Virus record (IMG/VR): IMGVR_UViG_3300034063_000636
Coordinates: 32,001-96,000 of that record
From: a virus
Reading direction: 5' to 3' (one strand)
DNA length: 64,000 nt
Shown: positions 4,054-47,970 of the stretch, piece after piece
How positions within the stretch are numbered: position 1 is the first letter of the stretch
How the letters are laid out: each line of letters begins with the position of its first letter
Made by a program: the position numbers and the translations under genes
The notes under the pieces: generated by a model
Told to the model about the DNA's origin: nothing
Seen by the model: the letters and a program-made list of their open reading frames with translations, nothing else
The model's database searches: none

Positions 4054-4078
4054 AGGGGGACTTCGGTCCCCTTTTTTT
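4054..4078 (+). terminator. rho-independent terminator with cUUCGg tetraloop at a convergent junction
   Basis: GGGGAC-TTCG-GTCCCC followed by T7; second hairpin GAAAAC..GTTTTC at 4035-4053. Confidence 0.9.
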
Positions 4079-5429
4079 ATCTTCCATAACCAATGTATTG
4101 TGGGTGATTAGAGTCTGCACCAGCAAGACGATTGAAAGTATTTTCGTTACTGAATACTCTTTCAGTTTTTGCGTCTGCTGCCTTTGCAGTGATTGTTCTA
4201 TTGTTATTGATTACAATTGGTGCTGACGATTTCTTTTCTTCTGTTGAACTCTTATAATCATCAAGCATTTCTGAGAAAGCATCTAAATCGTCTTTCTCTT
4301 TCTTAGCATTTAAAATTTGTTGTGTGTCAGATGTAATTGGGTTCATCGAAGATTCATCTAAATCTGCTGCAGATGATTCTTCGAGCGATGCATCATATTC
4401 ATTTTCTCGCATCTTGACTTGTTTTAAAATTTCTCCTGCATTATCTCCGCCATAAAAGTCAGCATACAATCGTTTAAATCTTTCCCATGGGTTATTACTT
4501 TCCTCTTCTTCATTTTTTTCTTTCATATCACTAACATCTTTATACACTTTTTTACAATATGATTCTTCTTCTCGTTTCCCACTTACTAAGATATCTTCTA
4601 TATCTTCTTCGTCAGTCAATCCCTCAACATCAATGCTTTCAATTTCTTCAGAAAGATCATCGATATTTTCGTCTTGGGTTTTTCCAATTACAGTAATATC
4701 CTCAATCTCATCATAGATGTCATCTAGAGTATCATCTTGCGTCTTACCAATGACTTTTATTTCTTCAATCTCATCATATATGTTATCTAACGTTTCATTG
4801 AATTTGTCATTAATGTATGATGGTGTAGGTTGCTCTGTGTCATCAGTCGGTGTTTGAACAAAATCTTGTTCTACTAATGAATCTATAATTGGTTGAACAA
4901 ATGGTTCAACTTGTGTTTGTTCTAGAACTGGTTCTTCCTGCGCACTATTTGGCTGAATGTTTTGCAGAAAGTCCCACGTACCATCATTGAAATTGAAATC
5001 TAAACCTTCCAATCCAGCTAATGTTCCAGTGTCTGTTGTTGACAATGCAGCTGCAGCATTTTGCATTGTTGGATCTTGTGCACCAGAATTAAAGGTTTTT
5101 CTCATTGCCTCTTGAATGTCCTCTAAATTAGAGAACGATTGAGGCATTTGACTCGGGTCAAATTGAATGTCTTGTTTTGAATATGTTGGTTCTTCAGCCT
5201 TCTCTGGCATCTCACCCAACCTTTCGTCGATTGCAGATGAAATCATATCGTTGATCATCTTTGTGTCTGTACCAACCGCATCTTTCATCATTTGAGATGC
5301 ATCAGGCTTAAACATGTCAACTAGATCAGCTGATGCAAACGTTCCGCCACCAAATCGTTTGGCAAATCCGTTTTTTAACTGATCACCTTTTTTTGCAAAA
5401 GGAGACATAAATTCTGATCGATCAATCAT
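4077..5429 (-). CDS. acidic tail protein in the tape-measure position (gp29-like), with 21-aa repeats carrying TonB-box-like motifs
   Basis: Follows the gp26/gp51-like pair; C-terminal SAPIVINNN stretch resembles T4-like gp29 termini; very D/E-rich; repeats DEIEEIKVIGK / DEIEDITVIGK. Confidence 0.5.
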   Translation of the reverse strand: MIDRSEFMSPFAKKGDQLKNGFAKRFGGGTFASADLVDMFKPDASQMMKDAVGTDTKMINDMISSAIDERLGEMPEKAEEPTYSKQDIQFDPSQMPQSFSNLEDIQEAMRKTFNSGAQDPTMQNAAAALSTTDTGTLAGLEGLDFNFNDGTWDFLQNIQPNSAQEEPVLEQTQVEPFVQPIIDSLVEQDFVQTPTDDTEQPTPSYINDKFNETLDNIYDEIEEIKVIGKTQDDTLDDIYDEIEDITVIGKTQDENIDDLSEEIESIDVEGLTDEEDIEDILVSGKREEESYCKKVYKDVSDMKEKNEEEESNNPWERFKRLYADFYGGDNAGEILKQVKMRENEYDASLEESSAADLDESSMNPITSDTQQILNAKKEKDDLDAFSEMLDDYKSSTEEKKSSAPIVINNNRTITAKAADAKTERVFSNENTFNRLAGADSNHPQYIGYGR

Positions 5430-5587
5430 TTATTCTTTCTCTGTAATTGTCGTTCTCTTATCTTATCATTTTCTTCTTTCACATGTTGCGCCACTAATGC
5501 AACATATGTCGCTCTTTCCCACGGGAGCATATTTTCGAGTTCACTTAAACTATATCCATGATGCTGCATTAATGCAAAATTAGTCAT
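5426..5587 (-). CDS. gp51: gp51-like baseplate hub assembly protein (53 aa from ATG; probably reached by -1 frameshift from the gp26-like ORF)
   Basis: Below the track cutoff. MTNFALMQHHGYSLSELENMLPWERATYVALVAQHVKEEN is a characteristic T4-like motif; its TGA overlaps the next ATG. Confidence 0.8.
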   Translation of the reverse strand: MTNFALMQHHGYSLSELENMLPWERATYVALVAQHVKEENDKIRERQLQRKNK

Positions 5588-5619
5588 ATAATATGTTTTC
5601 AAACTCTCATTACGAAGGC

Positions 5620-6342
5620 TTATACGAAAAAATCGAGGAGACCCTCCAGTTTGATGGTATGGTTTCTATCACACTTACCACAAACTAATTCATTCTTATA
5701 TCTTAACATTGGCATCTCTAAGAAAAAGTTTTTAATTTTCTTGAATTGCTCAGTGGTTAAATTGTTTATGAATTCATCAAACTCGCCTTGTTGCATCTCA
5801 TTAATATTATACACCTGATTCTCATCGTAAAGATACTCAGTACATTGCTTGATAATTTCTGTTGGAGCATCTTTTGTGTTGAGTTTCTCAACTAATACTT
5901 TAGAGATTTCTATTGTCGGATATCTCAATTTAATTCCAACATTGCTTGTTAACGGAACCAAACTGTTTGAGGGTTTATGTTCATATGCAACTTTAAGTAA
6001 GTCAATATCAAGCTGCATCTTTCCTTTACACTTCTTATTCTTATCCACAATATTTTCACAAACGTATTCTAATGAAACAATTTCTCCAATTGATCTTGCT
6101 CGTAGATTCAAGAACAAATATTCAATCTCATATAATGGTAAAGACTCAACATCTATCTGATCAACAACACAATTGTTGACAATTTGTTTAATTGCATCAA
6201 GACTTGTCTCATAATCTCTGGACTCTAAAGCCATCAAAAGAATTTTTTCTTCTTTGACAACAAAAGGGCGAAAGGTTATGTCTTTGCCTAGAGATTCTAG
6301 TTTAAGTTTAAATGTTGGTAAATCAATTTTTGGTATAGCCAT
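5620..6342 (-). CDS. gp26: gp26-like baseplate hub subunit / assembly chaperone
   Basis: MAIPKIDLPTF..FRPFVVKEEKILLMA..EYLFLNLRARSIGE..GIKLRYPT..CGKC..EGLLDFF. Confidence 0.88.
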   Translation of the reverse strand: MAIPKIDLPTFKLKLESLGKDITFRPFVVKEEKILLMALESRDYETSLDAIKQIVNNCVVDQIDVESLPLYEIEYLFLNLRARSIGEIVSLEYVCENIVDKNKKCKGKMQLDIDLLKVAYEHKPSNSLVPLTSNVGIKLRYPTIEISKVLVEKLNTKDAPTEIIKQCTEYLYDENQVYNINEMQQGEFDEFINNLTTEQFKKIKNFFLEMPMLRYKNELVCGKCDRNHTIKLEGLLDFFV

Positions 6343-6356
6343 AAATCACTCCATAG

Positions 6357-7145
6357 TTATCGTGGGTCGACGTTTCTTCTTCCTCGACCCACCACATCAA
6401 TGCTCGTCAAGACTTCTCTGTCACTTGTTGTTCCTCTGACATCAATATCTGTCAAAACCTCATTTCCATCACCAGTTCTTCCAACAACATCGATACCAGT
6501 AAGAACTTCTCTGTCTGCTGCTCTTCCAACGACCTCAATATCTTCAAGGACTTCTGGTGCCTCGTTATCATTTCGTTCATATCGGTCTGCATTGAAACTT
6601 CTCCAGTAACGATATGAGAAGTTGACATCTATTCTTACTGCTTCTTGCTCAGCCCATGATCCCTTTACTTCACTCACAGCAATCGGAAATACTTCATATA
6701 ATCTCACTCCATATGAAATCCTATTTCCATCTTCGGAGATTTGATACACATCAATTTCTCCGATGTAATCATCTCTATATCTAAAGTCGAATTTATTTTC
6801 TTTTGGATTGATATAATTCAACCAAGCATCAAAGAAGGTTTTTTGACGCATATCATCATCAACTAAGAATGTGGTTGAGACATCTTTATACTCAGAACGA
6901 ACTGGGATGTTCATTTTTGGTCCACCCAAGTAAAGATCGTTTGTGAGTATCTCATATCCTGGAATCAAAACAGACTCAGCATAGTATGTGAGATAATTAT
7001 CTTTATTTTTATAATTCAGAATGTTGACTAGTTCTGTTGGTGGCTTGATTACAATGGCAATCTTATTGAGTCGTGAAAATCCGCTCTTTCGAACCTCTGA
7101 GAGAAAGTTGTTGATGTTTAGTGTTTTTCTTGGATTGAGCGCCAT
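6357..7145 (-). CDS. gp54: gp54-like tail tube initiator (gp19 fold) with four C-terminal EVLxxIDVVGR repeats
   Basis: GFSRLNK..AESVLIPG..TFLVDDD..FFDAW..YRDDY..LYEVFPIAV..VNFSYRYW is typical of tube-fold proteins at this locus. Confidence 0.7.
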   Translation of the reverse strand: MALNPRKTLNINNFLSEVRKSGFSRLNKIAIVIKPPTELVNILNYKNKDNYLTYYAESVLIPGYEILTNDLYLGGPKMNIPVRSEYKDVSTTFLVDDDMRQKTFFDAWLNYINPKENKFDFRYRDDYIGEIDVYQISEDGNRISYGVRLYEVFPIAVSEVKGSWAEQEAVRIDVNFSYRYWRSFNADRYERNDNEAPEVLEDIEVVGRAADREVLTGIDVVGRTGDGNEVLTDIDVRGTTSDREVLTSIDVVGRGRRNVDPR

Positions 7146-7696
7146 TAACCAAAACTCCTCATTCGTTCAACTGGAAGAAATACTGCAGTCTCCCAGAAGT
7201 TTGGTTCTACATATATCAGTGGTGAAACTAGTTGATCATAAAGATATCTTCTATAGCAACTTCGAACAGCACCAGAGAATTGGCTCATGTTGGATAGGAG
7301 ATCATAGGACAATAAAAATCTTGTAGAATCGTCATATTTATCGTTGTTTAAGAACATCGACAATCCATCCAGAATACTCATTCTTTCTCCTGGACCTAGA
7401 AAGTGTAGATTGATGCCAGCGAACCCATCACCATCTACAACCATTGGAAGAACTAGAGGAAATTCATCCCATTGCGAGAGTCTTTCTTTTGTGAGTGGAT
7501 CATATCGAAAGAAGAACATTCTTCCAACTGCAGCGAATGCAGTAACTCGCTTTGCATCGTTCAGAATATTAGATCTATTGGATGGAATTGAGGCTTTGGC
7601 TACCATGCCTTGTATGAACTTTTTGGCTTCTTCAGTTCTTGGCTTGATCCCTTTCTTTGCCATTCCCTTTTCAATTTTTTCGAGTAGTGCTCCCAT
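7145..7696 (-). CDS. gp2: DNA end protector protein gp2
   Basis: GRMFFFRYDP.TK..L..WD.FPLV..GFAGINLHFL..R...CYRRYL..WETAVFLP. Confidence 0.88.
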   Translation of the reverse strand: MGALLEKIEKGMAKKGIKPRTEEAKKFIQGMVAKASIPSNRSNILNDAKRVTAFAAVGRMFFFRYDPLTKERLSQWDEFPLVLPMVVDGDGFAGINLHFLGPGERMSILDGLSMFLNNDKYDDSTRFLLSYDLLSNMSQFSGAVRSCYRRYLYDQLVSPLIYVEPNFWETAVFLPVERMRSFG

Positions 7697-8130
7697 CAGA
7701 TTCCTAATTCATCCTCTGTGATTAGACTAAATCTCCATTTTCTATCCATACAGTATTCATTTGCTGCCTTCCACTTTGCTTCGTTCACACCCCAAGTTGC
7801 AACTTCTTGGATGTATTGCTTTGTGATACGACTCTTTGGTTTAGGAGGAGATGCTTGACTCTTTGGCTTAACTTCTAGAATCATACTTTCTTCTAGACCA
7901 TTTCTATTCTTAACTTTCACGAAAAAGTCTGGAAAGTACCGATGCCATCTTCCATCTACTGGGGATAAATAAGGAATAACGATCTCTTCGTTCGACCATC
8001 CGATTACACTTGGATTTTCATCCAGATGCACCATGACTCGGCGTTCCCATAACGATCGATACCAAATGTTCGTATGGTCACCTAAATATTTACTGATGTT
8101 TTTCGGACTGTATTTGCCGCTGTATGCCAT
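7696..8130 (-). CDS. gp4: head completion nuclease gp4
   Basis: MAYSGKYSPKN..KY.GD..I.YRSLWER..WSNEEIVIPY.SP.D..HRYFPDF..EVKP..N.AKW.AA; ATG at 8130 preferred over TTG at 8133. Confidence 0.92.
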   Translation of the reverse strand: MAYSGKYSPKNISKYLGDHTNIWYRSLWERRVMVHLDENPSVIGWSNEEIVIPYLSPVDGRWHRYFPDFFVKVKNRNGLEESMILEVKPKSQASPPKPKSRITKQYIQEVATWGVNEAKWKAANEYCMDRKWRFSLITEDELGI

Positions 8131-8134
8131 CAAT

Positions 8135-8142
8135 TATTTATA
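8135..8142 (-). promoter_or_regulatory. T4 late promoter TATAAATA for the gp4 operon
   Basis: Perfect TATAAATA on the minus strand, 4 nt before the gp4 ATG. Confidence 0.8.
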
Positions 8143-8152
8143 GGAAATCTCA

Positions 8153-9352
8153 ATGACCGAAGTATTAGAGAACATCGACGTCATAGGTCGACGACCTGGA
8201 GTCGATCGAAGAGGCGATGAAGTCTTGACAGATATTAATGTCATTGGAAGAACTCCTGGTTCTGCTCCGCGAGATGCAGAACTTTTAGAAGGCATCGATG
8301 TAATTGGAAGATCTAGATCAAAATCTGAACCAAAGCATTTAAGATATCCACTTAATATGACTGATCCGAGTGGTGGTTTTAAGAATGCAGTTCGTTTCGT
8401 TGCATATGCACAGCGCAGATCGTTCCTAGATGACCCAAATGAAACACCATCTTTTAAAAATCCGCCAGATCAATTTGATCCTGGAAGACCAAGAAAGTTT
8501 CCTGTAACTCAAGGTGCGTTTAATACTTCTTTTTTGTTTAGAAGTTCACTAGTTCAATCTTCTAAATTTAATATCGGTACAGTTACAGAAGATTTGATTG
8601 GAATTGGAGCAAATGGAATCGAATTTTTTACTGGTGGTCGCGACATTTCCTATGGACAAAGAACAGTTGAATTAGACAGTTCAATCACTTTGTATATGCC
8701 TGATACAGTAATCAATCAAGACAAACATGATTATCAATCAATTTCTATTAATCAGGCTTCAGGTAGAGCAGGACTATATTCCGCAGGATTTCCTGCTGCT
8801 TTAGGTGGACTTGGATCTGCTTTAGGAAGAACAGAAGTATTTGCAGAGCTGGCTGGAAGAGCAGGAATATTTGGGACACGATCAACTGAAGCGATTCTAT
8901 CAGGACTCGGTTATGCATTAAATCCGATGCTTGAAATGACATACGGTGGAACGCAACCAAGATCCTTCTTGTTCCAATTTAGATTTGCTCCAAGAAATTT
9001 AAAAGAAGCAGAAGAAGTTAAGAAAATCATTAAGACCTTCAGATTCCATTCACACTCTGAGAATGCTGGTGGACAGGGCACAGCTGCAGAAGGTAGCGGA
9101 ACTCGATATTTGGTTCCACCAAATCATTTCGAAATTCAGTTCCTTCGTAGAGATAGCACAGGAAAATTTGTAGAAAATTTAGCGATGCCTAGAGTTACGA
9201 CATGCATGATAGCCTCGATCAACACAAACTATGCAGCGCAGTTAGATACCTTTGCAACACACCAAGACGGCACTCCAGTTTCTATAAGCCTTGATCTTGA
9301 ATTTATAGAAAGCGTCGTTCTCACTAAAAACGATATTAAGAACGGTTACTAA
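8153..9352 (+). CDS. gp48: baseplate tail tube cap gp48 with three N-terminal EVLxxIDVIGR repeats
   Basis: LRYPL, ITLYMP, NPMLEMTYGGTQPRSFLFQFRFAPRN.KEA..V..II..FR, C.I.SI..NY, L.FIE. Confidence 0.85.
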   Translation: MTEVLENIDVIGRRPGVDRRGDEVLTDINVIGRTPGSAPRDAELLEGIDVIGRSRSKSEPKHLRYPLNMTDPSGGFKNAVRFVAYAQRRSFLDDPNETPSFKNPPDQFDPGRPRKFPVTQGAFNTSFLFRSSLVQSSKFNIGTVTEDLIGIGANGIEFFTGGRDISYGQRTVELDSSITLYMPDTVINQDKHDYQSISINQASGRAGLYSAGFPAALGGLGSALGRTEVFAELAGRAGIFGTRSTEAILSGLGYALNPMLEMTYGGTQPRSFLFQFRFAPRNLKEAEEVKKIIKTFRFHSHSENAGGQGTAAEGSGTRYLVPPNHFEIQFLRRDSTGKFVENLAMPRVTTCMIASINTNYAAQLDTFATHQDGTPVSISLDLEFIESVVLTKNDIKNGY

Positions 9353-10278
9353 TGTCTTATTTCTCAAAATTTCCAAGAGTATTATACTCTATCAATAAAG
9401 AAGGAACAAATGCAAAAATTGTTCCAGATATGCTCGCTAGAGTTAAATTTATCGACTCTATTCTGTCAAATCAAAGTTTATTTTTTAAATATGAAGTAAA
9501 GGGTGAAGAAACAGCAGAGCAAATTGCGAACAGAGTTTATGGAAATCCTGAGAAACATTGGATTCTTTTTCTTGTCAATCAAATCATTGATCCTCAATTT
9601 GATTGGCCACTAGGTCCATATGACTTTGAAAAATATATCAAACAAAAGTATGGATCAATTAATGTAAGTTTGAGCACTGCGGAGTCGTATGCAACTCCAG
9701 GAACCTATTATACTGCAGGTGAGATTGTCTATCAGGGGGCATCTACTTACGATAAATCAACAGCAGATGCAACAATTGTCGCCTATGATTCAACAAATAA
9801 AGTTTTAAAATTAAAATTTCCTTCTCAGATGTTTGCAAATGGTAGCACCATTAAAGGTGTAACTGCTAACTCGGCAGCGCAAACACATACTGTTATTGCA
9901 ATCACAAACAACTTAGATGGATACCAGTGGGCTGTTAACACTGTAAGTCATTATGAAGTAACAGAGACAAAAACAAACTCAGATGATCCAACATTTTCTG
10001 AAGTCAAAAAGTATAGAATCACAGCAAATGGATTTAATTACTCAACAAATACTGTAATTGCTCTCAACACAAATACTTCTTATTCGAATACATTTAATGT
10101 TGTAAGTTCAGTGACTGGCGGAAATGCTCAAATGACAATTGCAACAACAGTTTCTCCTGTATCATATTATGATTATGAGGTTGAATTAAACGAAGAGCGA
10201 AGAAAAATTATAGTGCCACAGTCTTCAATAATCGGTGCTATTGAGAATCAATTTAGTTCATTAATGCTGGCAAAATAA
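9352..10278 (+). CDS. gp53: baseplate wedge subunit gp53
   Basis: MSYFSKFP..Y.V..E.AEQIA.RVYG..HWILFLVN.IIDPQFDWPL..YDYE..LNEERRKI. Confidence 0.88.
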   Translation: MSYFSKFPRVLYSINKEGTNAKIVPDMLARVKFIDSILSNQSLFFKYEVKGEETAEQIANRVYGNPEKHWILFLVNQIIDPQFDWPLGPYDFEKYIKQKYGSINVSLSTAESYATPGTYYTAGEIVYQGASTYDKSTADATIVAYDSTNKVLKLKFPSQMFANGSTIKGVTANSAAQTHTVIAITNNLDGYQWAVNTVSHYEVTETKTNSDDPTFSEVKKYRITANGFNYSTNTVIALNTNTSYSNTFNVVSSVTGGNAQMTIATTVSPVSYYDYEVELNEERRKIIVPQSSIIGAIENQFSSLMLAK

Positions 10279-10279
10279 T

Positions 10280-11608
10280 ATGAAAGATGTTAATTCGAGC
10301 GGAAGATCAGCTGGTGATGGTCTGTACTCTGAGTATGATTTTTCTTTAACAGAATTAAAGTTAATCAATTGTCTTGGGGTTAACATTGACGTCGATTTCG
10401 TTTTTCAAGAAATAAATTTATACGAGGATCTGTTCAACAATGTCATCAGTGGTGATGCGACTCTTGTTGACTCAAATGATTTGCTAAACAGATTGAAGAT
10501 GCACGGAAACGAATTTATTTCTGTCGCATTTAGCACACCTGGAATGCAAAGGTATCAAAAAGTTTTTAGAATCTACAAGATAAGTGATTATACTTTGCGT
10601 GGAACATCAAATGCAACTTTTAAATTGCATTTCTGCTCTGAAGAATTCATGTTGAATCAACAATACTACATCTCCAAATCATTTAAGGAGAGTAGACTTT
10701 CAGATATTATTAAAATTATTTCTAGAAATTTTTTAAAGATTTCTCCAGAAAAACTAACCGATGATAACATCGAGCAATCAAGCCTACTAATTAATCCAGA
10801 AAAAAGTCCTCTAATTGTTCCAAACTTAAGACCATTTGAGGCTATCAATTGGATTGCATCCTTTGCAATAAATCCAAAAGATTTATCTCCTGGATACATG
10901 TTTTACGAGAACATCAATGGCTTTAATTTTGTTTCCTTGAGCAGTTTATATTCCAGACCAGCAAAGAAAACAATTTATTACTCACCAAAAAATCAAAACT
11001 TCTTAGAATCCATCGGATCAAGACATGATAAATTAGATGAGATGGAATTTAAACAAGTATTTGATGTTTTGGATAGCATGAATAATGGAGCATACGCATC
11101 TGAACTATTGAAACTTGATATTATGAATCGAACGACTGAATACGAACAGTTTGGTGTGAATCAGTCATCTCTTAAACTGTTGAATGAATATTTGCCGTAT
11201 AGTTACGCAAAAAATAGAATGGGCAATTCTTTAAATCAGGCTTCTGGTTATGTTCGCATGTTTCCTAAATTTCAAGACATGCTCACAAGTAAATGGTTAC
11301 TTTCGCGTGCTGCTCGAATAGCTCTCTTAAATAACACAAGATTGCATGTTGATCTGCCAGGGGATAGTTCGTTGTCAGTCGGCGATATTGTGAATGTCAG
11401 TTTGCCTAAAAATGATGCACAAACAGATCCAAATAATATCAAAGAAGACAATATGATGTCAGGAAGATATCTAATCACTGGAATACGTCATCAACTTATT
11501 GAAAATTATTACTATTGTCATGCAGAGCTTTGCAAAGACTCAGTGAATGTCAATATAGGATTTAACCCACAATTTAATTCTGCGTGGAATTTGGTAATTA
11601 ACTCATGA
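10280..11608 (+). CDS. baseplate hub protein (gp27-like)
   Basis: INLYED.F..ISG..DS; PFEAINW; YMFYEN..GFNF.SL; LPGDSSLSVGDIV..SGRYLITGIRH; located between gp53 and gp5. Confidence 0.75.
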   Translation: MKDVNSSGRSAGDGLYSEYDFSLTELKLINCLGVNIDVDFVFQEINLYEDLFNNVISGDATLVDSNDLLNRLKMHGNEFISVAFSTPGMQRYQKVFRIYKISDYTLRGTSNATFKLHFCSEEFMLNQQYYISKSFKESRLSDIIKIISRNFLKISPEKLTDDNIEQSSLLINPEKSPLIVPNLRPFEAINWIASFAINPKDLSPGYMFYENINGFNFVSLSSLYSRPAKKTIYYSPKNQNFLESIGSRHDKLDEMEFKQVFDVLDSMNNGAYASELLKLDIMNRTTEYEQFGVNQSSLKLLNEYLPYSYAKNRMGNSLNQASGYVRMFPKFQDMLTSKWLLSRAARIALLNNTRLHVDLPGDSSLSVGDIVNVSLPKNDAQTDPNNIKEDNMMSGRYLITGIRHQLIENYYYCHAELCKDSVNVNIGFNPQFNSAWNLVINS

Positions 11609-14568
11609 AATTAAGAAAGAATTTTATTGGACAAGACGGATTTCAATGGTGGATTGGCGTCGTTGAAGATCGCAATGATCCAGAAAAGATTGGAAGATGT
11701 CGTGTTCGCATCTTTGGAATACACACAGATGATACTGTTGCAATCCCAACAGAAGATTTACCATGGGCAATTCCAGTATATTCTGTCAATAACAACGAAT
11801 CATTCTCTGCACCAAAAGAAGGCGAGTATGTTGTTGGGTTTTTCCTTGATGGATCATTCGCTCAATCACCAGCCATTCTAGGAGTTCTTCCTGGAATTAA
11901 TAAACAAAATCCTCCAGATGGTCGCGGATTTGGTGACGTTAGAGATGCAAGTAAAATAAGAAACTCACCAAGAAAACCATCAGCCATTGATTATCCTGAG
12001 GCTAGAACTGGAACAGAAAATCCAGTGAGTGCGAATATTATTAATGATGGAATCGGATTATTGAAAATCATTGAGAATAGTATCAAATTGCATGTTCCAT
12101 TGTCTTTAAAAGCCAAACAGTCTCTTACAGAAAGTGATCAGAGTATGATCGGATATGATCATCAGTTTACACAACAAGAATTACGACAAGGTTATGTTTC
12201 AATCAGTTCTTTTGAGACAGTGCCAATTTATGGTATTAATGGAATTGACACTGTTATAACACCACAACAAGCAACAGCACTTCTTCGAATTGATATTAAC
12301 AACTCTATAAATCGCGCTCGAAGTTCAATTAGCGATGGTGTTTGGAACGGATTAAACGTTGCTCAAAAAGCAGGTTTGGCGTTTCATGCGTATCACATCG
12401 GTCTTAATGTGGATTTTGAGAGAATCGGTGTTCGTTCTGCAATCACTTCTGGCGACCTCGTTAGAGCAGCTCAGTTAATCAGTTCCGATAAACTCAAATC
12501 TTCAACTGGGAAATATCTGATCAGTGAAGATTCGCTGTCACATATTGCTGCTAATCTATTCAAATCAATTCCAAAGTCATCATTGGCTGAGCAAAGAAGA
12601 AATACTTTAACAAAAAGAAATCCAATCTCAGCTGCAGGGGCTGGACTTGGTGTTCAAATTCACGAATCAGATTTATCTGCAGATTCAGATGCAAAATCTC
12701 TAAAGTATCCGCTTCCAGAAGAGCAAGGCAAGCCTTCATTGAATGATTTTGCAACCTCATTAGAAAAGAGCGTTACACAAAAATTCCGAGAGCGATCTTC
12801 AATCATTGCAATTGGAGCAAATGATCAATCATGGTCAGAACCTGCCTCTCCATACATAGCTGAATATCCATATAACAAGGCTATGGAAACAGAATCTGGT
12901 CATGTGTTCGAACTTGATGATACTCCTGGAAGTGAGCGTGTTCATCTAGCGCATAGATCTGGAAGTTTTGTTGAATTTTATCCAAGTGGAACTAAAGTAG
13001 AAAAAGTCGTCAAGAGTAATTATAGAATTGTTCTCAACGATGATTATCTTTATGTTGCAGGAAAGGTTAATATTGTCTTAGAATCTAACGCTCATATTAA
13101 AGTCGTTGGTGATTGTTTCTTGCAAGTCGAGAATAATCTAGAGGCAAATGTGAGTGCAAATATGAATGTATCGGTTGGTGGCGCATTTAATATGCGAGCC
13201 AATACTCTGCACTTCGACATTGCAAATACATCGACAATCACTGCTAATAATCAATACATTTCAGTTGATGATAAACTTATTATAAATTCGAATACTTCTA
13301 ACATATCAACTGCGAATGATTTCACTCTTTACTCTAAATCAAATCAATACTTCAACGTTGCGAATACGATTCATTATAGATCTGGAAACGTGGCGATCCA
13401 ATCCTCTGGAAATATCTCAATCAACAGTGTAGGAAATGGATACTTCACTTCAAGTAATGTTCTTCACCTAAAAGGAAGTTCAACTCGAGTCACTGGATCC
13501 TCTGTTGAGATTAATGGATTGTTAAATGCTGGTGCGACCAATATGGAAGCGACAGGATATGATTCGAACGGGGATTCTCATGTTCTATCTGTAGCAGGCA
13601 GCGGAGGAATTGCTGCATTGATACCAGATCCTTCCTTAACTCGCATGCCTGCGATAGATGCAAATGGTATTGTTTACTTGTATCATGAAGATAAAACGAA
13701 CAAGGATAGAATGAGAAGAAATAGCAGTGAAGAGCAATTTGTTCTAATCGAAATCGCTGATCAGTTCCAAATTAATGTAAATCAAGTGCAAGAAGTTGTA
13801 AATGCGACATCTTATCTTGAGAAACCAATTAAATTAGGAACTCCAACTGATACACAAAAACATCTAGAACCAGATAGAATCTTTAGATTTAAAGACTCGA
13901 TAACAGAAGAAAACAATAAGTTATTAAGAGATTATCTTGCAAATCCTTATGCATATTCTTCACCATATTCAAACGTTAAGAGATTTATTGCACCACCATC
14001 AACTTCAGGCTCTGATGTGATCTTTAATGATGTTGTGGGAGAGAGTTTGATTGTGATTAATGATGGTGCGGATATATCTGCTTGGCTGAGAAAACAATTA
14101 GTTCTCGCAGCAAACGGTTATTGGAGAGAAACTGGTGTTGAAATTTCTGGTAGAATCGAACCGTCGAATCCAAATATCACTGATCTCTGGAGAAATCTCG
14201 GATTCTCTAGAGAATTTTGGAATTTGAGCGATCAATCGAGATGGGCAATCGCATTCGTCAACTTCGGATTGAAACAGAATGGCTATCGATATGTTCAGAC
14301 TCCAAATCCAAGAGATCTTGAAATTCGAATCGATGATTATCGTTTCACTCGTGTTAAGCCATCAGATGCTCAGCCTGGAGATGTTGTTTTGTGGAATAAT
14401 GACCATACCAACTTCGTTTATGAAAACATAAATGGATCTCTAACCTTTATCGGAGGATCTCAACCACCGTATAACGGTAATATCGGTGATGGTCGCATTG
14501 GTGACGTCTCTCTTGTCAGCAGCGGAGGTGCGCAAATTGTTGCAATTCTTCGTCCGTCTAAGACATAA
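11605..14568 (+). CDS. gp5: baseplate central spike gp5: OB fold, degenerate lysozyme-like domain, beta-helix, C-terminal degenerate CHAP/NlpC-like domain
   Basis: WWIGVVEDRNDP..GRCRVRIFG.HT..LPWA; YPYNK..ETESGHVFELDDTPG.ER..HRSG; C-terminal WAIAFVN..PGDVVLW..H..FV..GGSQ. Confidence 0.92.
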   Translation: MKLRKNFIGQDGFQWWIGVVEDRNDPEKIGRCRVRIFGIHTDDTVAIPTEDLPWAIPVYSVNNNESFSAPKEGEYVVGFFLDGSFAQSPAILGVLPGINKQNPPDGRGFGDVRDASKIRNSPRKPSAIDYPEARTGTENPVSANIINDGIGLLKIIENSIKLHVPLSLKAKQSLTESDQSMIGYDHQFTQQELRQGYVSISSFETVPIYGINGIDTVITPQQATALLRIDINNSINRARSSISDGVWNGLNVAQKAGLAFHAYHIGLNVDFERIGVRSAITSGDLVRAAQLISSDKLKSSTGKYLISEDSLSHIAANLFKSIPKSSLAEQRRNTLTKRNPISAAGAGLGVQIHESDLSADSDAKSLKYPLPEEQGKPSLNDFATSLEKSVTQKFRERSSIIAIGANDQSWSEPASPYIAEYPYNKAMETESGHVFELDDTPGSERVHLAHRSGSFVEFYPSGTKVEKVVKSNYRIVLNDDYLYVAGKVNIVLESNAHIKVVGDCFLQVENNLEANVSANMNVSVGGAFNMRANTLHFDIANTSTITANNQYISVDDKLIINSNTSNISTANDFTLYSKSNQYFNVANTIHYRSGNVAIQSSGNISINSVGNGYFTSSNVLHLKGSSTRVTGSSVEINGLLNAGATNMEATGYDSNGDSHVLSVAGSGGIAALIPDPSLTRMPAIDANGIVYLYHEDKTNKDRMRRNSSEEQFVLIEIADQFQINVNQVQEVVNATSYLEKPIKLGTPTDTQKHLEPDRIFRFKDSITEENNKLLRDYLANPYAYSSPYSNVKRFIAPPSTSGSDVIFNDVVGESLIVINDGADISAWLRKQLVLAANGYWRETGVEISGRIEPSNPNITDLWRNLGFSREFWNLSDQSRWAIAFVNFGLKQNGYRYVQTPNPRDLEIRIDDYRFTRVKPSDAQPGDVVLWNNDHTNFVYENINGSLTFIGGSQPPYNGNIGDGRIGDVSLVSSGGAQIVAILRPSKT

Positions 14569-14985: not shown

Positions 14986-17061
14986 ATGGCAAATGTCGAA
15001 AGTAAACTCGTTATTTCAGAACCAGATTTCTTTACAATAAAGGCGAGTCTCAAGAACTTTTTGAAGTCTCAGAGTACGTTTGCAGATTACGACTTTGAGG
15101 GATCAACTTTATCTCAATTGATCGATCTATTGTCATATAATACTCATTACCTATCATTCTATATGAATATGATTGCAAATGAGTCGTTTTTAGATACCGC
15201 CGCACTGAGAGACTCTGTTGTTTCTCATGCGAAGATGTTAGGATACACTCCTTCTTCCATTCGCAGTGCTCAAGCAAAAATCGATTTAAGTTTCACATTG
15301 GCAAATAATCCTGGAGTTGGATCCATCACTTCGCTAACTCTTCCGAAGTTCACACGATTTGCATCATCAGCAATTGATGGCGTCAATTATATCTTCACAA
15401 ATTTAGATGAAGTCACTGTAACTAAATCAAATAATGCATTTACCTTTGCAGATCTAGAGATTTATGAAGGCAATCCTGTTTCTCAGGTTTTTGTATACAA
15501 TGAGCTGATCAATCCTCTTCAAGAATTTAAACTTCTAGATCAAAACATTGACACGTCAACTCTTGAAGTGATTGTGCAAAATTCAAGTTTAGATTTAACA
15601 CAAGAAACATATACTCTTGCAACAGATTCAACAATCTTATCTCAAACAAGTAAAGTTTATTTCCTAGACGAAATCACTAATGGAAATTATAAGATTTATT
15701 TTGGAGATGATATTCTTGGAAAGAAACTTTCTGATGGAAATATCGTTATTGTTTCTTATGTCGTAAGTAAAGGCGCAGAAGCAAATAAAGCAAAAGGATT
15801 TAGATTGATGGATTCTGTTGGTGGCTTAACTGAAGGCACCATCGTCGTTGATCAAATTGCTTTGGGCGGTGCCGCTGCAGAGTCAATCGAGAAGATTAAA
15901 AATATCGCACCAAAATCATATGCCTCAAATGGCAGAGCGATAACTAAGAACGATTATATTGCATTGATTCAACAAAGATACCCTGCATTCGAATCAGTAA
16001 ACGTTTGGGGTGGTGAAGAAAATATTCCTCCAGTTTATGGTAAAGTGTTTGTTTCAGCTAAACCTGCAGCTGGATACGAAATTTCTAGAACAGAAAAAGA
16101 CTATATCATTAATACAGTTATTGATCCAATTAGTATTTTGACAGTGACGCCTGAGTTCGTTGATCCAGATTATAACTTCTTAAATTTAAATGTAAAAGTT
16201 ACATATGATCCGACTGCAACGACTTTAACTCCAGGCGAACTCTCAACTCTTGTTCGTGATAAAATTAATGGATATGCAAATACCTACTTGGATCAATTCA
16301 ATTCATACTTTAAGATCTCAAGATTAATGCATGAAATTGACATGGCACATCCATCAATTGTAAGTAATGATGTTGACGTTAAGATCGAAAAACGACTAAC
16401 ACCAATACTTGGTACATCTAGAAGTTACGTCATCAAATACTACACTGAATTAAAACGTTCAACAGGTGCTGATAGAATCAGTTCAAGCCCTGCATATACT
16501 GCATATGACAACGAAGGCATCTTGCGCGAATTCTACTTTGAAGAAGTTCCATTGTCTTCTACTGGTGTCTCTTCAGTTCAAGTTGTTCTTGGTGGTTCTG
16601 GATTAACAACCACGCCAAGACTTGACGTTATTGGTGATGGTATCGGTGCTGAACTTGAGGCTATTGTAACAAACGGAAAGATTACAGCAGTCAATGTTAA
16701 AAAGCCTGGTGCGGATTATACGACTGCAGCAATTAGAGCATATGATCAAGATAATAATTTATTGACAAATATTATCTTAAAACCAATCGTGGAAAACACG
16801 ACTGGCAGATTAAGATCTTACTATTTCGATAATAATAACATCAAAGTGATTTATTCTGATTCTGCAGGTGTGATCGACTATATTACTGGAACAATTACTC
16901 TTACGCAATTTAGCCCAATCGATGTTAGAGATAATTTTAAAATCTTGAAGTTCTATGCAACCCCAAAGAACACTCTGTTTAATTCTGCTCGAAATACAAT
17001 CATTACACTAGACATTGACAATCAATCTCAAGTTTCAATTGATATTGTTAAAGTAACCTAA
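14986..17061 (+). CDS. gp6: baseplate wedge subunit gp6
   Basis: DF..IK..LKNFL..F.DYDFEGS.LS.LIDLLSYNTHY..NESFLDTA..R.SVVSHAK.LGY.P; RAIT..DY; WGGEEN.PP.YGKVF. Confidence 0.95.
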   Translation: MANVESKLVISEPDFFTIKASLKNFLKSQSTFADYDFEGSTLSQLIDLLSYNTHYLSFYMNMIANESFLDTAALRDSVVSHAKMLGYTPSSIRSAQAKIDLSFTLANNPGVGSITSLTLPKFTRFASSAIDGVNYIFTNLDEVTVTKSNNAFTFADLEIYEGNPVSQVFVYNELINPLQEFKLLDQNIDTSTLEVIVQNSSLDLTQETYTLATDSTILSQTSKVYFLDEITNGNYKIYFGDDILGKKLSDGNIVIVSYVVSKGAEANKAKGFRLMDSVGGLTEGTIVVDQIALGGAAAESIEKIKNIAPKSYASNGRAITKNDYIALIQQRYPAFESVNVWGGEENIPPVYGKVFVSAKPAAGYEISRTEKDYIINTVIDPISILTVTPEFVDPDYNFLNLNVKVTYDPTATTLTPGELSTLVRDKINGYANTYLDQFNSYFKISRLMHEIDMAHPSIVSNDVDVKIEKRLTPILGTSRSYVIKYYTELKRSTGADRISSSPAYTAYDNEGILREFYFEEVPLSSTGVSSVQVVLGGSGLTTTPRLDVIGDGIGAELEAIVTNGKITAVNVKKPGADYTTAAIRAYDQDNNLLTNIILKPIVENTTGRLRSYYFDNNNIKVIYSDSAGVIDYITGTITLTQFSPIDVRDNFKILKFYATPKNTLFNSARNTIITLDIDNQSQVSIDIVKVT

Positions 17062-35086: not shown

Positions 35087-35419
35087 ATGCCATACGCAGA
35101 GTTAACGGTTGATCAGGGCACAACTTTCGAAACTTCTATAGATTTAGTTGGCGATGATGGCGCTGCGATCAATATCGCAGGGTGCGTTTTCTTGGGTCAA
35201 GTTCGCAAATCTTATTATTCTTCCAATGTAACTGCAAATCTGACAATTACCACTTTAAGTAATACAGGTGGAAATCTAATCATGTCTTTAAATTCAGCAG
35301 TCACTGCAAACATTAGAGCAGGTCGTTATCTTTATGACGTAAAGATGACTGATACAGATAACATAACAACTCGAGTCGTAGAAGGTATTCTAACTGTGAC
35401 ACCACAGGTGTCCAGATAA
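35087..35419 (+). CDS. small Ig-like fibre attachment protein
   Basis: ELTVDQGTTF..QVRKSY..LIMSL...TANI.AGRYLYDV..TRVVEG.LTV.PQV; immediately precedes the giant fibre. Confidence 0.7.
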   Translation: MPYAELTVDQGTTFETSIDLVGDDGAAINIAGCVFLGQVRKSYYSSNVTANLTITTLSNTGGNLIMSLNSAVTANIRAGRYLYDVKMTDTDNITTRVVEGILTVTPQVSR

Positions 35420-38400
35420 TGAAGATAACGATTACGAATAATAATCAGATCGGTAAGGTTACTTTCGGCAAAGTGACGAGAGTCGGCGATCTATATGCAA
35501 ACGATATTCTAGATCTTATAAACACAGTCGTTTATAGATCAGGCTCAACGATGACAGGCAACTTAAATGTTGCTGCGACAATTATTACGCAAAACGTAAT
35601 TCCGTCTGTCAATAATACATACAATCTTGGTAGTCCAACTTATCGATACAAAGATGCATACTTTGGTGGTAACACTGTATACATCGGCGACTCTATACTA
35701 TCAGCACAAGCAAACAGTCTTTTAACAAATACATTTATTGCTACAACATCATTTGTTAGTGGTGGCTTAAACGTTCTAGACCAAGCAAATGCTGCATATG
35801 CTGAAGCCAACTTAAAACTCGGTCTTGGTGGCGGTACAATTACAGGAAGTCTTACTGTAACTGGAAACCTCGAAGTTCTCGGTAATACAACAACACTTAA
35901 TGTTGAAACATTGTCACTCGAAGACAATGAAATTATTCTCAATTCAAATGTAACTGGTCCACCATTACTTGACTCGTTCATAACGATCAATCGTGGATCA
36001 ATGACAAATGCTGTTCTTAAGTGGGATGAAAGCACTGATCAATGGAAGTGGTCGGATGGCAATGGCGTATATTATGCACTAGATTCTTCTTTGGGCGCAT
36101 ATGCTCAAGCCAACGGAGCGTATGCACAAGCCAATGGTGCCTATGCTCAAGCAAACGGAGCCTATTCTCAAGCCAATGGTGCATTTGCGCAAGCAAACGG
36201 AGCATATGCTCAGGCTAACGGTGCTTACGCCCAAGCAAACGGAGCGTATGCGCAAGCAAATGCAGCAAGCGATAATGCAAACACGAGAGTTCTAAAAGCT
36301 GGCGATACAATGACTGGTCAGCTGAACATCAGTTCAGGCGGTCTTGTTGTCACTGGCAATATTGTTACAACTGGTGCAAGTGGCGACATAACTGGCGTCA
36401 ATACCATTTATGCTGGAACATTCTCAACAACAGCTGGATTAAATGTTACTGCTCAAGCAGCAAATGCTTACGAGCAAGCCAATAATGCTAGAACAACAGC
36501 AAATGGTGCATACTTACAAGCCAACGGCGCTTATGCACAGGCTAATGGGGCTTACGCTCAGGCAAATGGCGCATACGCTCAGGCAAATGGTGCTTATGCG
36601 CAAGCCAATGGTGCCTATGCACAAGCGAATGGTGTTTATGCTCACGCTAATGGAATTTATGATGTTGCAAACGCTGCATATGCTCAAGCCAATGCAGACT
36701 ATCAACCTGCTGTAACAAGATTTGATGTGACCTCTAGCGGAACATCAGCATACAGATTCGATCAATATGGCTCAATCGTTGACGATCCAACACTTTATGT
36801 TCGTGCTGGTGAAACTCTTGCATTCAATTTGAATGTAGTTGGGCATCCATTCATGATCCGCCAATCAAATGGTGGAGCAAATTATAATACTGGATTGACT
36901 CACGTTGAAACTACAGGTGTAATTTCTACAGGGGCGAGTGCACAAGGTAAAACAACAGGTGTTCTTTATTGGAAAGTTCCATTTGAACTTCAAGGCAACA
37001 CTTACGTTTATCAATGTCAAGTGCATTCTGCGATGGTTGGCAATATTGTTATTGAGCCACCATCAACGATCATTTATGCTCAAGCGAATGTTGCATTTGA
37101 TACTGCCAATGGTGCGTACTCACAAGCAAATGGTGCATATAGCCAAGCCAATGGCGCTTATGCACAAGCCAACGGTGCGTATGCGCAGGCAAATGGTGCC
37201 TATGCTCAAGCCAACTCAGCATATGCTCATGCAAACATAGTTTACGCTCAAGCCAACGCAAGTTTTGATCAAGCGAATACTGCTAGAACAACAGCAAATG
37301 ATGCATATGAGCAAGCAAACACTGCAAGAAGCACAGCCAACGATTCATATGCTCAAGCGAATACGGCACGTGATACTGGCAACAACGCATATGCTCAAGC
37401 AAACACCGCTCGCGATACAGCAAATGATTCTTACGCTCAAGCAAACACCGCTAGAGACACTGGTAACAATGCTTATCTGCAAGCCAATACTGCTAGAGAC
37501 ACTGGCAACAACGCATATGCTCAGGCGAATACCGCTAGAGATACTGGTAACGATGCATATAGTCAAGCGAACACTGCTCGCAATACTGCTAATGATGCAT
37601 ACTTACAAGCCAATAATGCATACGCTGAAGCCAATATAAAACTTAACATCTCTGGTGGATCGATCACTGGTGATTTGATCGTTTCTGGAAATCTAGAAGT
37701 TCTAGGAAACAGCACAACATTAAATGTTGAAACTCTTGCAATTGAAGACAATGAGATTATTCTCAACTCAAATGTAACTGGATCACCAACACTTGATGGC
37801 TTTATTACAATCAATCGTGGCAGCAACACAAATGCTTCGATTAAGTGGGATGAAAATACGAATCAGTGGAAGTGGACGGATGGTGATACATTCTTCTATG
37901 CATTTGACTCTGCTTTAGATGCTTATGCTCAAGCAAATACTGCACGTGATCAAGCCAATACCGCTAGAGAAACTGGCAATGATGCCTATGGTCAAGCCAA
38001 CACTGCAAGAACAACAGCAAACGACGCTTACCTTCAAGCCAATACTGCTCGCGACCAGGCAAATACGGCACGTGATACTGGCAACAATGCTTACGCTCAA
38101 GCGAATACAGCTCTTGATACCGCTAATGGTGCATACGCTCAAGCAAATGGCGCCTATGCTCAAGCCAACGGAGCGTATGCACAAGCAAATCTAGCATTTG
38201 GTCAAGCCAATGGTGCATACGCTCAAGCAAATGGTGCTTATGCGCATGCTAATATTGTTTACGCTCAAGCAAATGCTGCATTCAATCAGGCAAATACTGG
38301 AAATGACTCTGCAAATGCAGCCTATGCACAAGCAAATACTGCACGCGATACTGGCAACAATGCATATGGACAAGCGAACACAGCTCGCACAACTGCCAAT

Positions 38401-41400
38401 GACGCATATGCTCAAGCAAATACTGCTCTAGATACGGCAAACGGCGCATATGCCCAAGCAAATGGGGCTTATGCTCACGCAAATATTGTATATGCTCAAG
38501 CAAATACGGCTCGTGATACTGCAAATGCCGCTTATGGTCAAGCAAATGGTGCATTCGATCAAGCGAACGCTGCTTATAATCAAGCAAACACTGCCAGAAC
38601 AACTGCGAATGACGCTTATGGTCAGGCAAATAGCGCATTTAATCAAGCGAATGCAGCATATGACAAAGCCAATACTGCTCTAGACACAGCGAATGGAGCA
38701 TATGCCCAAGCAAATGGAGCCTACGCTCACGCTAACATTGTCTACGCTCAAGCCAATAATGCATACGATACAGCCAATCTAAAACTTAATATTGCTGGCG
38801 GTACAATTAATGGTTCATTGAACGTTTCTGGTAATTTAAGCATAACTGGTAATACAACATATTACAATGTGGCAACTTATGCTGTTGATGACCCATTAAT
38901 TTATCTTGGCGCAAATAATATTCTGAATGATATTGTTGATATAGGATTTATTGCCACGAAAAATACCAGCGGCAACTTGAGTCATACTGGGTTTGCTCGC
39001 GATGCTGGAGATGCTACTTGGTATTTGTTTGATAATCTATTAGATTCTGGTCACCAAAATAACATAGTCGACTTCGCAAATACCACACTCGCAACACTTC
39101 GCGCAAACATTGCTGCAAATAGCATACTCTTGATGGGTAATGTTGTTGCGACTCAAGCAAATCTAACACTCGCTCATAATCAAGCCAATACTGCAAATAA
39201 TACTGCGAATGGTGCATATTCTCAAGCCAATGGAGCCTATGCTCACGCTAATATAGTTTATGCACAAGCCAATGCTGCATTTAATCAAGCCAACGCTGCT
39301 TATGATAAGGCAAATGGCGCATTTGATACTGCTAATGGTGCATATTCTCAAGCGAACGGTGCTTATGCCCACGCGAATATTGTTTATGCTCAGGCTAACG
39401 CTGCATATGATAATGCAAATACCAGAGTTCTAAAATCTGGCGATACAATGACAGGCAATCTCAATGTGAGTGCCTTCATCATTACTAATAATGTTCAGCC
39501 AAATTTAAATGTTACATACGACCTTGGTTCACCAACCAAGAGATATAAGAATCTTTATCTTTCAAATAATGCACTACATTTGGGTGATGCGGTAATCACA
39601 TCAAATGGATCAACACTAGTTGTTTCTGGTGTTGAAATTGATGGCAGTGGAAATCTAATCGCTGCGTTTGATTCTTATGACCAAGCAAATACTGCTAGAG
39701 ATACTGCCAATGCTGCATACAATCAAGCAAACGGTGCGTTCAATCAGGCGAACGGTGCATATGCGCATGCTAACATAGTATATGCTCAGGCAAATGCTGC
39801 TTATGACCAAGCCAATACTGCTCGTGGAACTGCTAACGATGCGTATGCTCAAGCAAATACTGCACGTGATACTGGTAACAATGCATATGCTCAAGCCAAT
39901 ACTGCTCGAGACACAGCAAACGATGCTTATGGTCAAGCAAATACCGCCAGAACAACCGCGAATGATTCTTATAATCAAGCAAACACAGCGCGCACTACAG
40001 CCAATGATGCTTATGGTCAGGCAAACACAGCGCGTGGAACTGCGAATGATGCATATGGTCAAGCAAATGCTGCTTATCTCCAAGCCAATAATGCATATGA
40101 TGAGGCAAATCTAAAAGTTAATATTTCTGGTGGAACCATTTCTGGTGATTTGGTTGTTTCTGGTAATCTTTCTGTACTCGGAAATAGCACCACACTTAAT
40201 GTTGAAACTTTAAAAATTGAAGATAACGAAATTATCCTCAATTCGAATGTTACTGGATCGCCAACTCTTGATAGTTTCATCACAATCAATCGCGGCAGTT
40301 CAACAAACGCTGTCATTAAGTGGGATGAGAATACTGATCAATGGAAGTGGTCAGACGGCGACACATTCTTCTATGCGTTTGATTCTGCGTTGGATGCTTA
40401 TGCTCAAGCAAATACGGCACGCGCGACCGCCAATGATGCATATGGACAAGCCAACGTTGCTCGTGCGACTGCCAATGACTCGTATTTGCAAGCGAACACT
40501 GCTCGCGATACTGCAAATGCATCTTACGATCAAGCGAATACTGCAAGAACTACTGCCAATGACGCATACGGTCAAGCGAATACAGCTCGTACGACCGCTA
40601 ACGATTCTTATGCTCAAGCCAATACTGCAAGAAATACGGCTAACGACTCTTACGCTCAGGCGAATACTGCTCGAACAACAGCTAATGATGCTTATGCTCA
40701 GGCGAACACAGCACGCACTACTGCGAATGATTCCTATGCGCAGGCAAACACTGCTCGTAATACAGCCAATGATTCTTACGCTCAAGCAAATACCGCTCGC
40801 GCTACGGCAAATGATGCATACGGACAAGCGAACGCTGCGTATAACACAGCAAATACTGCAAACGCAACGGCAAATCTAGCATATGCTCAAGCCAATTCAA
40901 ATTACCAACCTGCAGTCACACGACTCAACGTAACAAACTCTGGCTTCTCTGCATATTTACTTGATCAATATCCTGGCAATAATCCAACTGTATACGTTAG
41001 AGGCGGTGAAACATTAGCGTTCGATCTAAACGTTTCTGGTCACCCATTCATGATTCGTCAGTCAAGCGGCGGAGCAAATTATAACACTGGATTGACTCAC
41101 GTTTCTTCAACTGGTGTTGTTTCTACTGACGGTAGCGCTCAGGGGCAAGTTTCAGGAACATTGTATTGGAAGGTTCCGTATAATATTGTTGGCAACACTT
41201 ATGTTTATCAGTGTTCAATTCATGGTGGTATGGTTGGCAACATTGTTATTGAACCATCAGTGATTGTTGCTTATGCTCAAGCGAATGCAGCATTTGATAC
41301 CGCCAACGGTGCATATGCCCATGCAAATATTGTCTATGCACAAGCAAATGCTGCATACAATGATGCAAACGGCGCATATGCGCAAGCCAACGGTGCTTAT

Positions 41401-45219: not shown

Positions 45220-45231
45220 CAGGACATTACA

Positions 45232-45558: not shown

Positions 45559-45559
45559 T

Positions 45560-47932: not shown

Positions 47933-47970
47933 TTGCGCAGATAAATATTCAATAAATCTAAGAGTGTTAA

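Follow-up and report, generated by a model that had tools for sequence, protein, structure and literature searches.

In this work, we analysed a stretch of 64,000 nucleotides (positions 32,001 to 96,000 of the IMG/VR virus record IMGVR_UViG_3300034063_000636; hereafter, the window) and describe a short motif repeated in three tail proteins that it encodes: gp48, the baseplate tail tube cap; a second tube-fold protein resembling gp54, the tube initiator; and the protein occupying the slot of the tape measure protein (TMP). The repeats are retained in the relatives of this phage and change in step in the three proteins; in the most distant relatives they strongly resemble the TonB boxes of TonB-dependent receptors, the resemblance of the window's own copies being weak. 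Judging from these comparisons, the repeats could be TonB-box mimics that become exposed in the periplasm after tail contraction, a reading to which we give about even credence.

Eleven Copies of One Motif in Three Tail Proteins

A regular-expression scan of the six-frame translation of the window for the motif [DE]-x-[LI]-x-x-I-x-V-x-G retrieved 11 copies, all in three open reading frames (ORFs) and none elsewhere. The three proteins and their repeats are the following:

8153..9352, plus strand: gp48 homolog, baseplate tail tube cap (distal tube end), 399 residues; phrog_230, E 6.6e-49
8159-8191, plus strand: gp48 N-terminal repeat 1, EVLENIDVIGR
8219-8251, plus strand: gp48 N-terminal repeat 2, EVLTDINVIGR
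8279-8311, plus strand: gp48 N-terminal repeat 3, ELLEGIDVIGR
6357..7145, minus strand: tube-fold paralog, gp54-like (tube initiator) by elimination, 262 residues; phrog_45, E 1e-31
6522-6554, minus strand: gp54-like C-terminal repeat 1, EVLEDIEVVGR (repeats 1 to 4 within 6384..6554)
6477-6509, minus strand: gp54-like C-terminal repeat 2, EVLTGIDVVGR
6429-6461, minus strand: gp54-like C-terminal repeat 3, EVLTDIDVRGT
6384-6416, minus strand: gp54-like C-terminal repeat 4, EVLTSIDVVGR
4077..5429, minus strand: acidic protein of 450 residues in the tape-measure slot, putative TMP; synteny and C-terminal motif
4743-4775, minus strand: TMP-slot central repeat 1, DEIEEIKVIGK (repeats 1 to 4 within 4575..4775)
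4680-4712, minus strand: TMP-slot central repeat 2, DEIEDITVIGK
4617-4649, minus strand: TMP-slot central repeat 3, EEIESIDVEGL
4575-4607, minus strand: TMP-slot central repeat 4, EDIEDILVSGK

A looser pattern, [DE]x[LIV]xx[LIV]xVxG, also gave 11 matches in the window, all within the same three ORFs, versus 0-4 matches in each of 20 triplet-shuffled windows. An earlier note on this DNA had described one motif in three unrelated proteins, appended on linkers outside the conserved fold. All 11 copies were found at the positions it reported, and they fall outside the PHROG and Pfam envelopes (phrog_230 covers residues 54-398 of gp48 and phrog_45 covers the tube paralog from residue 5 to 192). The linkers on either side of them are either acidic or rich in Pro, Gly, and Arg, those between the gp48 copies being of the latter type. 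The word "unrelated" needs to be qualified, since gp48 and the gp54-like protein are both relatives of the tube fold, although the motif lies outside that fold. In a low-confidence AlphaFold2 model of the gp54-like protein (mean predicted local distance difference test, pLDDT, of 47), residues 186-262 have a pLDDT below 50, which weakly suggests that these C-terminal 77 residues may be unstructured. Probing the PDB sequences with a repeat region by phmmer retrieved a chance match only.

Where copies of gp48 and of the gp54-like protein share identical residues, their third codon positions often differ. This rules out a recent copying between the repeat genes at the DNA level; because of the same differences, the likeness of the repeats appears to be kept up at the peptide level, by selection acting on the peptide.

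Identity of the Three Proteins

The assignment of gp48, already made in the earlier note, is firm. In addition to the phrog_230 match, the protein is recognised by Pfam T4_tail_cap (PF11091; 20.3 bits against a cut-off of 20.2) and aligns with T4 gp48 by hhalign (E 0.0011); moreover, its gene is followed by gp53 and gp5, in the same order as in T4-like genomes. In T4, the gp48 ring is the tube's distal end after the departure of the gp5-gp27 hub, and residues 7-32 of gp48 are inserted between gp53 and the first sheath layer in the extended tail and freed on contraction (10.64898/2026.03.06.709160). The repeats of the window sit where this anchor loop sits, both preceding a [YF]P core motif. 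Their position cuts both ways, being compatible with a role within the virion and, at the same time, belonging to the part of the tube that reaches the periplasm.

This raises the possibility that the repeats are assembly or locking strands, which would bind baseplate, sheath or tube subunits, or each other, inside the virion; they would represent an enlarged version of the T4 anchor loop, and their TonB likeness would be a by-product of strand chemistry. We consider this explanation rather unlikely. It is favoured by the documented in-virion loop of T4, which belongs to the same family and has the same N-terminal position before the core (Roa-Eguiara et al. 2026). On the other hand, the T4 loop, whose known role is purely intra-virion, has neither a TonB-box-like sequence nor repeats, and a copy number varying from two to five, as found among the relatives described below, would be unusual in a fixed structural contact.

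The identity of the tube paralog is less straightforward. The phrog_45 family also contains T4 gp19, gp3, and gp54, and exactly three phrog_45 genes are present in each of the T4, S-CAM3, HTVC008M, Cr30, and AF3 genomes. When these genes are paired, T4 gp19 goes with the tube class and T4 gp3 pairs best with the class near the head genes; the remaining class, which adjoins gp26, includes the protein of the window, which is therefore, by elimination, probably the gp54 equivalent. Two observations speak against this identity: the hhalign score is higher with T4 gp3 (38.3) than with T4 gp54 (22.7), and the gene adjoins gp2-gp4, as gp3 does in T4. The record to which the window belongs, 63% complete, shows one phrog_45 gene only. 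As the simplest reading, the gp3 identity is disfavoured, in that each of the complete genomes tested offers a better partner for T4 gp3. The name given to this protein in the earlier note holds in outline, by elimination among three paralogs, in spite of the hhalign scores. In the hhalign comparison with T4 gp54, the first gp54-like repeat, PEVLEDIEVVGR (6519-6554), pairs with the T4 segment LEWLESAAINGI (L199:8754-9716), directly past the tube fold; this pairing, which may be either a faint ancestral trace or due to chance, is a further point in favour of structural strands.

The third protein is placed in the hub module, between gp26/gp51 and the next module; the same slot is occupied by the proteins annotated as TMPs in HTVC008M and Cr30 and by long ORFs in AF3 and S-CAM3. 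Its C-terminal ENTFNRL..HP motif is common to the slot proteins of two T4-like contigs (L253 and L257). The protein is strongly acidic (102 Asp plus Glu versus 43 Lys plus Arg residues) and is devoid of a hydrophobic segment, with a maximum Kyte-Doolittle score, KD(19), of 0.65 versus 1.8-2.2 in the T4, HTVC008M, AF3, and S-CAM3 proteins. It did not match any entry of Pfam, PHROG, PDB, or the ESM Atlas, nor did it reveal any similarity to T4 gp29. Because it resembles no named TMP family and contains no hydrophobic or transmembrane segment, we refer to it as the TMP-slot protein and not as a proven TMP; of the tape-measure assignment proposed in the earlier note, synteny and the shared C-terminal motif are what stands.

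Conservation and Concerted Change of the Repeats

Sixteen IMG/VR loci encoding a gp48 with 52-100% identity were considered as relatives. The repeats are retained in all three proteins of these relatives, wherever the genes are present. The copies range from two to four in gp48, from three to five in the gp54-like protein, and from two to four in the slot protein. Positions 3 (L/I), 8 (V), and 10 (G) show practically no variation, and the linkers drift freely.

According to the remaining positions, two lineages can be distinguished. In lineage A (the window and L003-L013), position 6 is occupied by I and position 7 by a polar residue such as Asp or Asn; lineage B (L014-L018), which includes the most distant relatives, has V at position 6, V or T at position 7, and T at positions 9 and 11, the repeat reading D-x-L-D-E-V-V-V-T-G-T-R. 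The switch from one flavour to the other occurs in step across gp48, the gp54-like protein, and the slot protein. Since the flavour switches together in three proteins, a single shared partner is suggested; and since, by analogy with T4, the TMP would lie in the lumen and the gp48 N-terminus outside the tube, such a partner would more easily be external. The same consideration makes it difficult, in the structural explanation introduced above, to find a single virion partner for the co-varying motif.

The motif is absent from HTVC008M, Cr30, AF3, and Paraglaciecola GD1. Among 150 representatives of the gp48 family, N-terminal boxes were found only in the lineage-B-like P0007 and in the distant P0152 and P0020. 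In place of the APRDAELLEGIDVIGR of the window, the nearest gp48 relatives without the motif, P0008 (45% identity) and P0009 (38%), have only APKDAQKLENI and APKDVKALENV, respectively, which looks like a last repeat that has decayed or has not yet formed.

One might also suppose that the repeats are neutral low-complexity expansions of disordered tails, with no specific function. The regions involved are disordered and repeat-prone, the copy number is variable, and the close outgroups P0008 and P0009 have a degenerate remnant only. Nevertheless, the invariance of L3, V8, and G10 next to variable linkers across relatives 52-100% identical, the synonymous differences that accompany the conserved residues, and the presence of the same motif on three separate genes, changing in step, already disfavour this idea, which we hold to be highly improbable.

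Likeness to Receptor TonB Boxes

To compare the repeats with cellular proteins, the lineage-B octamer EVVVTGT[RS] was searched for in prokaryote genomes, one for each species. Among the matches listed, 42 of 49 complete ORFs are at least 550 residues long and have the octamer among their first 150 residues, and 31 of these, again among the matches listed, terminate in F, W, or Y. The N-terminal octamer, the length of the ORF, and the aromatic end represent the signature of TonB-dependent receptors.

A receptor set was then assembled with 30 Plug-domain genes from five octamer-bearing genomes, chosen by their Plug score and ignoring the motif. The motif found de novo upstream of the Plug domain in these 30 genes is A-D-[LV]-[DE]-E-V-V-V-T-[AG]-[ST]-R, which shares its register with the phage motif, and the lineage-B consensus D-x-L-[DE]-[EG]-V-[VT]-V-T-G-T-R agrees with it at 10 of 12 positions. 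In 23 of the 30 receptors, the top match of a matrix built from 18 distinct lineage-B copies falls at the true box, 15-27 residues upstream of the Plug domain; for the column-shuffled controls, the mean is 3.8 receptors and the highest count 14. As far as structural strands are concerned, the consensus match of lineage B, inclusive of the flanking D-x-L and G-T-R, exceeds what generic strand chemistry would give.

The phage repeats share several features with the receptor TonB box (e.g., BtuB DTLVVTA, FhuA, and FepA), that is, a flexible segment bearing a strand-forming peptide of 7-12 residues that begins with an acidic residue, presents an alternating hydrophobic face, and has Thr/Ser-Arg after Gly/Ala, the lineage-B copies being in register. 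Boxes of the LDEVVVTGTR type are those of receptors from Caulobacterales, Sphingomonadales, Bacteroidota, and Xanthomonadales. The conserved positions 6, 8, and 10 presumably correspond to L8, V10, and A12 of BtuB, on the side of the strand that we take to face TonB in the BtuB-TonB and FhuA-TonB structures; positions 7 and 9, which vary between the lineages, would presumably point away from TonB. Unlike receptor boxes, the phage copies are carried by virion proteins with no Plug or barrel, are arranged in tandem (two to five per chain, on three chains), and are also C-terminal and internal; furthermore, the variant of the window is acidic or polar at the central position.

Several data weigh against a TonB role of the window's own repeats. 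The lineage-A matrix finds the box in nine of the 30 receptors only, versus a control mean of 4.1 and a maximum of 13, and the repeats of the window, whose central residue is Asp, Asn, or Glu, score poorly against real TonB boxes. When the window was scanned with a receptor-derived matrix, two TMP-slot copies ranked 5th and 6th out of 75,234 12-mers, but the gp48 and gp54-like copies ranked from 360th to 8730th. The best match, TNLDEVTVTKSN (15397-15432, plus strand), falls in a gp6-like wedge gene (14986-17061), where it is probably a structural strand, and this implies that single matrix matches can be spurious. No long proteins sharing words with residues 1-60 of gp48 were found; hence, no known receptor has the exact flavour of the window. 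The receptor boxes compared may differ from those of the host, to which a phage-borne tmRNA, described below, is the only clue. Lastly, an alternating hydrophobic pattern is a feature of any edge beta-strand, and the anchor loop of T4 gp48 offers a documented alternative for the same position; the poor score of the window variant is, in turn, an argument for structural strands. Overall, at the sequence level the TonB-box resemblance is strong for the lineage-B repeats and weak for those of the window.

As a side observation, the gp6-like ORF of another contig (L256) holds a sequence, SNLKEVTVTKSN, similar to the gp6-like match of the window.

The weakness of the window variant also leaves room for another envelope component as the partner, e.g., an inner-membrane-anchored periplasmic protein, peptidoglycan-associated proteins, or a phage-encoded protein, with TonB not involved in the lineage of the window. 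The difference between the I-D-V flavour and the canonical boxes is in line with this possibility, as is the reported contact between the T4 central spike and the inner-membrane-anchored chaperone PpiD (PMC7600766), which indicates that tail tips can use other periplasmic partners. That case, too, pairs a myovirus tail tip with an inner-membrane-anchored periplasmic host protein; it differs in that the gp5 tip is involved, with another host protein and no short linear motif. Against a different partner, the repeats of the window are positionally homologous to the canonical boxes of lineage B, with intermediates such as P0007, and no other known short docking motif fits; moreover, the invariant positions are presumably those important in TonB boxes. 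We regard a partner other than TonB as decidedly unlikely.

Boxes in Other Phage Lineages

TonB-box-like peptides are not confined to the sixteen relatives. Single N-terminal boxes are present on gp48 in P0152, P0020, L247, and L254 and on gp54-like proteins in L216, L242/244/245, and L257, and a box is found in the C-terminal part of the gp5-like hub protein of L245; of these loci, L242/244/245, L247, L254, and L257 were retrieved with P0152 and P0020. The exact octamer has 26 matches in IMG/VR. These include unrelated tape measure proteins, with three strong cases and one weak (L225/229, L233, L228, and L222/226), the N-terminus of another phrog_45 tube paralog, and several unknown proteins; other matches, in a terminase, inside a Dit fold, and in short wrong-frame ORFs, look like chance. 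When a cultured relative of a box-bearing TMP was sought, the match was limited to the conserved N-terminal TMP domain, with the box region unmatched.

The placement of the boxes at N- or C-termini according to the lineage, and their occurrence in siphovirus-type tape measures, which belong to another tail architecture, are difficult to reconcile with strands that lock a given virion. Taken together, the co-variation of the repeats and their recurrence in other lineages and in unrelated TMPs favour a shared external partner, and TonB is the sole candidate that the sequences indicate.

A Possible Route through the Periplasm

Since a lumen protein and an external loop would hardly share a partner in the virion, and since the flavours co-vary, a host partner met after contraction appears the simpler reading. 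By analogy with T4, the repeats would be exposed in the periplasm; we further infer that TonB would bind them and might pull on them. According to this reading, the following steps can be envisaged:

i. In the extended virion, the peptides would be stowed, the gp48 N-terminus maybe at the baseplate-sheath interface, as in T4.

ii. Once the tail has contracted and the gp5-gp27 spike is lost, the end of the tube, formed by gp48 and then the gp54-like ring, would reach the periplasm, and the extruding TMP-slot protein would also be exposed.

iii. Host TonB, which is anchored in the inner membrane through ExbB-ExbD, would capture about 50-65 exposed boxes with its C-terminal domain, by beta-strand addition, and the tube tip would thus be tethered to the inner membrane.

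iv. A TonB pull driven by the proton motive force could also extract the lumen protein, which in this clade would have lost the membrane-inserting hydrophobic segment used by T4-type tape measures.

A bacteriocin precedent exists: group B colicins and TonB-dependent pyocins (colicins B, D, Ia, and M; pyocin S2) exploit TonB-ExbBD by means of a TonB box located in a disordered segment. Unlike colicins, which cross the outer membrane via a receptor, the phage tube would already be across it, and the box would act in the periplasm, for docking or extraction; in addition, the phage boxes are multivalent and part of a virion. In T4, the tape measure partly extrudes from the tube and its transmembrane helices form an inner-membrane conduit, and TMPs have been compared to pore-forming colicins (10.64898/2026.03.06.709160). 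The infection of T1, phi80, and H8 is TonB-dependent (cited in PMC9294509), a dependence ascribed to the energised receptor (FhuA or FepA); here, in contrast, the proposed TonB box would be carried by the phage itself.

The earlier note had read the repeats as TonB-box mimics by which the tail hijacks the host TonB motor. The TonB-box likeness is strong for lineage B (10 of 12 positions, 23 of 30 receptors) and weak for the I-D-V variant of the window (nine of 30); the reading as a whole is partly supported, with the comparative data in favour of a shared external partner, and the binding to TonB, the TonB dependence, and the pulling or uncapping that it proposes are best taken as predictions. 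The note knew of no such case in phage tails, and in the literature, too, no description of tail proteins with TonB boxes was found.

Genomic Context and Host Clues

The window is part of a 108-kb record with a CheckV completeness of 63%, and its gene content is that of a divergent T4-like myovirus. No close cultured phage was found. On one side, the gene layout comprises gp59, gp32, the acidic ORF of 450 residues, an ORF of 58 residues, gp26, the tube-fold paralog, gp2, and gp4; on the other side, gp48, gp53, a phrog_350 tail protein, a gp5-like gene, and wedge genes. This gene order is common to Pelagibacter phage HTVC008M, cyanophages, Caulobacter phage Cr30, and Rhizobium phage AF3, with an identity below 30%. 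The genes surrounding those of the box-bearing proteins are the following:

5620..6342, minus strand: gp26 baseplate hub subunit; Pfam T4_baseplate, E 9e-58; phrog_150
7145-7696, minus strand: gp2 DNA end protector; phrog_429/phrog_218 pair with gp4
7696-8133, minus strand: gp4 head completion protein; phrog_429/phrog_218 pair with gp2
9352-10278, plus strand: gp53-like wedge protein, in the hub module (9352..14568)
10280-11608, plus strand: phrog_350 tail protein, hub module
11605-14568, plus strand: gp5-like hub/lysozyme, hub module

The gp4 homolog (7696-8133, minus strand) also has a match (E 2.3e-23) to the endonuclease fold of Pfam Tn7_TnsA-like_N.

Concerning the habitat of this uncultured phage, the IMG sample numbers of related contigs fall in the range of the labels of Lake Mendota metagenome-assembled genomes, which tentatively suggests fresh water. 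A phage-borne, full-length permuted (two-piece) beta-type transfer-messenger RNA (tmRNA) lies at 169-529 on the plus strand (RF01850, 137.9 bits against a gathering threshold of 84, E 1.3e-43; RF04321, 138 bits), and its tag peptide, as given by ARAGORN, is ANDDYFEMALAA. The sequence of this tmRNA hints at a betaproteobacterial host. A BLASTN search with it over 400 genomes of the class retrieved the tRNA-like arm only, and RF01850 gave no match above the cut-off over 150 genomes of the class.

Elsewhere in the window, a single ORF of 2470 residues (35419-42831, plus strand) has a 2OG-Fe(II) oxygenase gene and glycosyltransferase-like genes as upstream neighbours. The region 44000-58000 (plus strand) has a G+C content of 47-53%, versus about 38% in the rest of the window, and contains several large paralogous ORFs (45560-47932, 51445-54003, and 54540-57167). 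The sequence [ST]-[QESV]-V-[ED]-Y-L-V-V-[AG]-G-G-G recurs in these ORFs (at 44294, 51592, 53266, 54729, and 56379), which are likely fibre or structural paralogs.

Implications for Phage DNA Entry

How the contractile tube bridges the periplasm and opens the inner membrane, and why DNA entry needs an energised membrane, is an active field of study. The work on T4 credits the hydrophobic helices of the tape measure (10.64898/2026.03.06.709160); a clade whose TMP-slot protein is without such helices but bears TonB-box-like tags, as do both of its tube-end rings, suggests a second route, based on a host motor and hitherto known only for bacteriocins. More broadly, and more tentatively, the display of TonB boxes on the tail parts that reach the periplasm (tube-end rings, hub, and tape measure) might be a widespread strategy of phages of Gram-negative bacteria, perhaps of several origins, that couples DNA entry to TonB-ExbBD: TonB would dock the tube tip and use the proton motive force to pull the lumen protein, replacing the TMP membrane segment in this clade. 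We think this broader view possible, with less confidence than the mimicry itself.

If true, TonB, ExbB, or ExbD would be host factors acting after adsorption, and resistance loci, and the flavours of the motif would be determinants of host range. Furthermore, the motif would provide a simple sequence marker of this route, with single boxes occurring also in other T4-like lineages and in unrelated TMPs.

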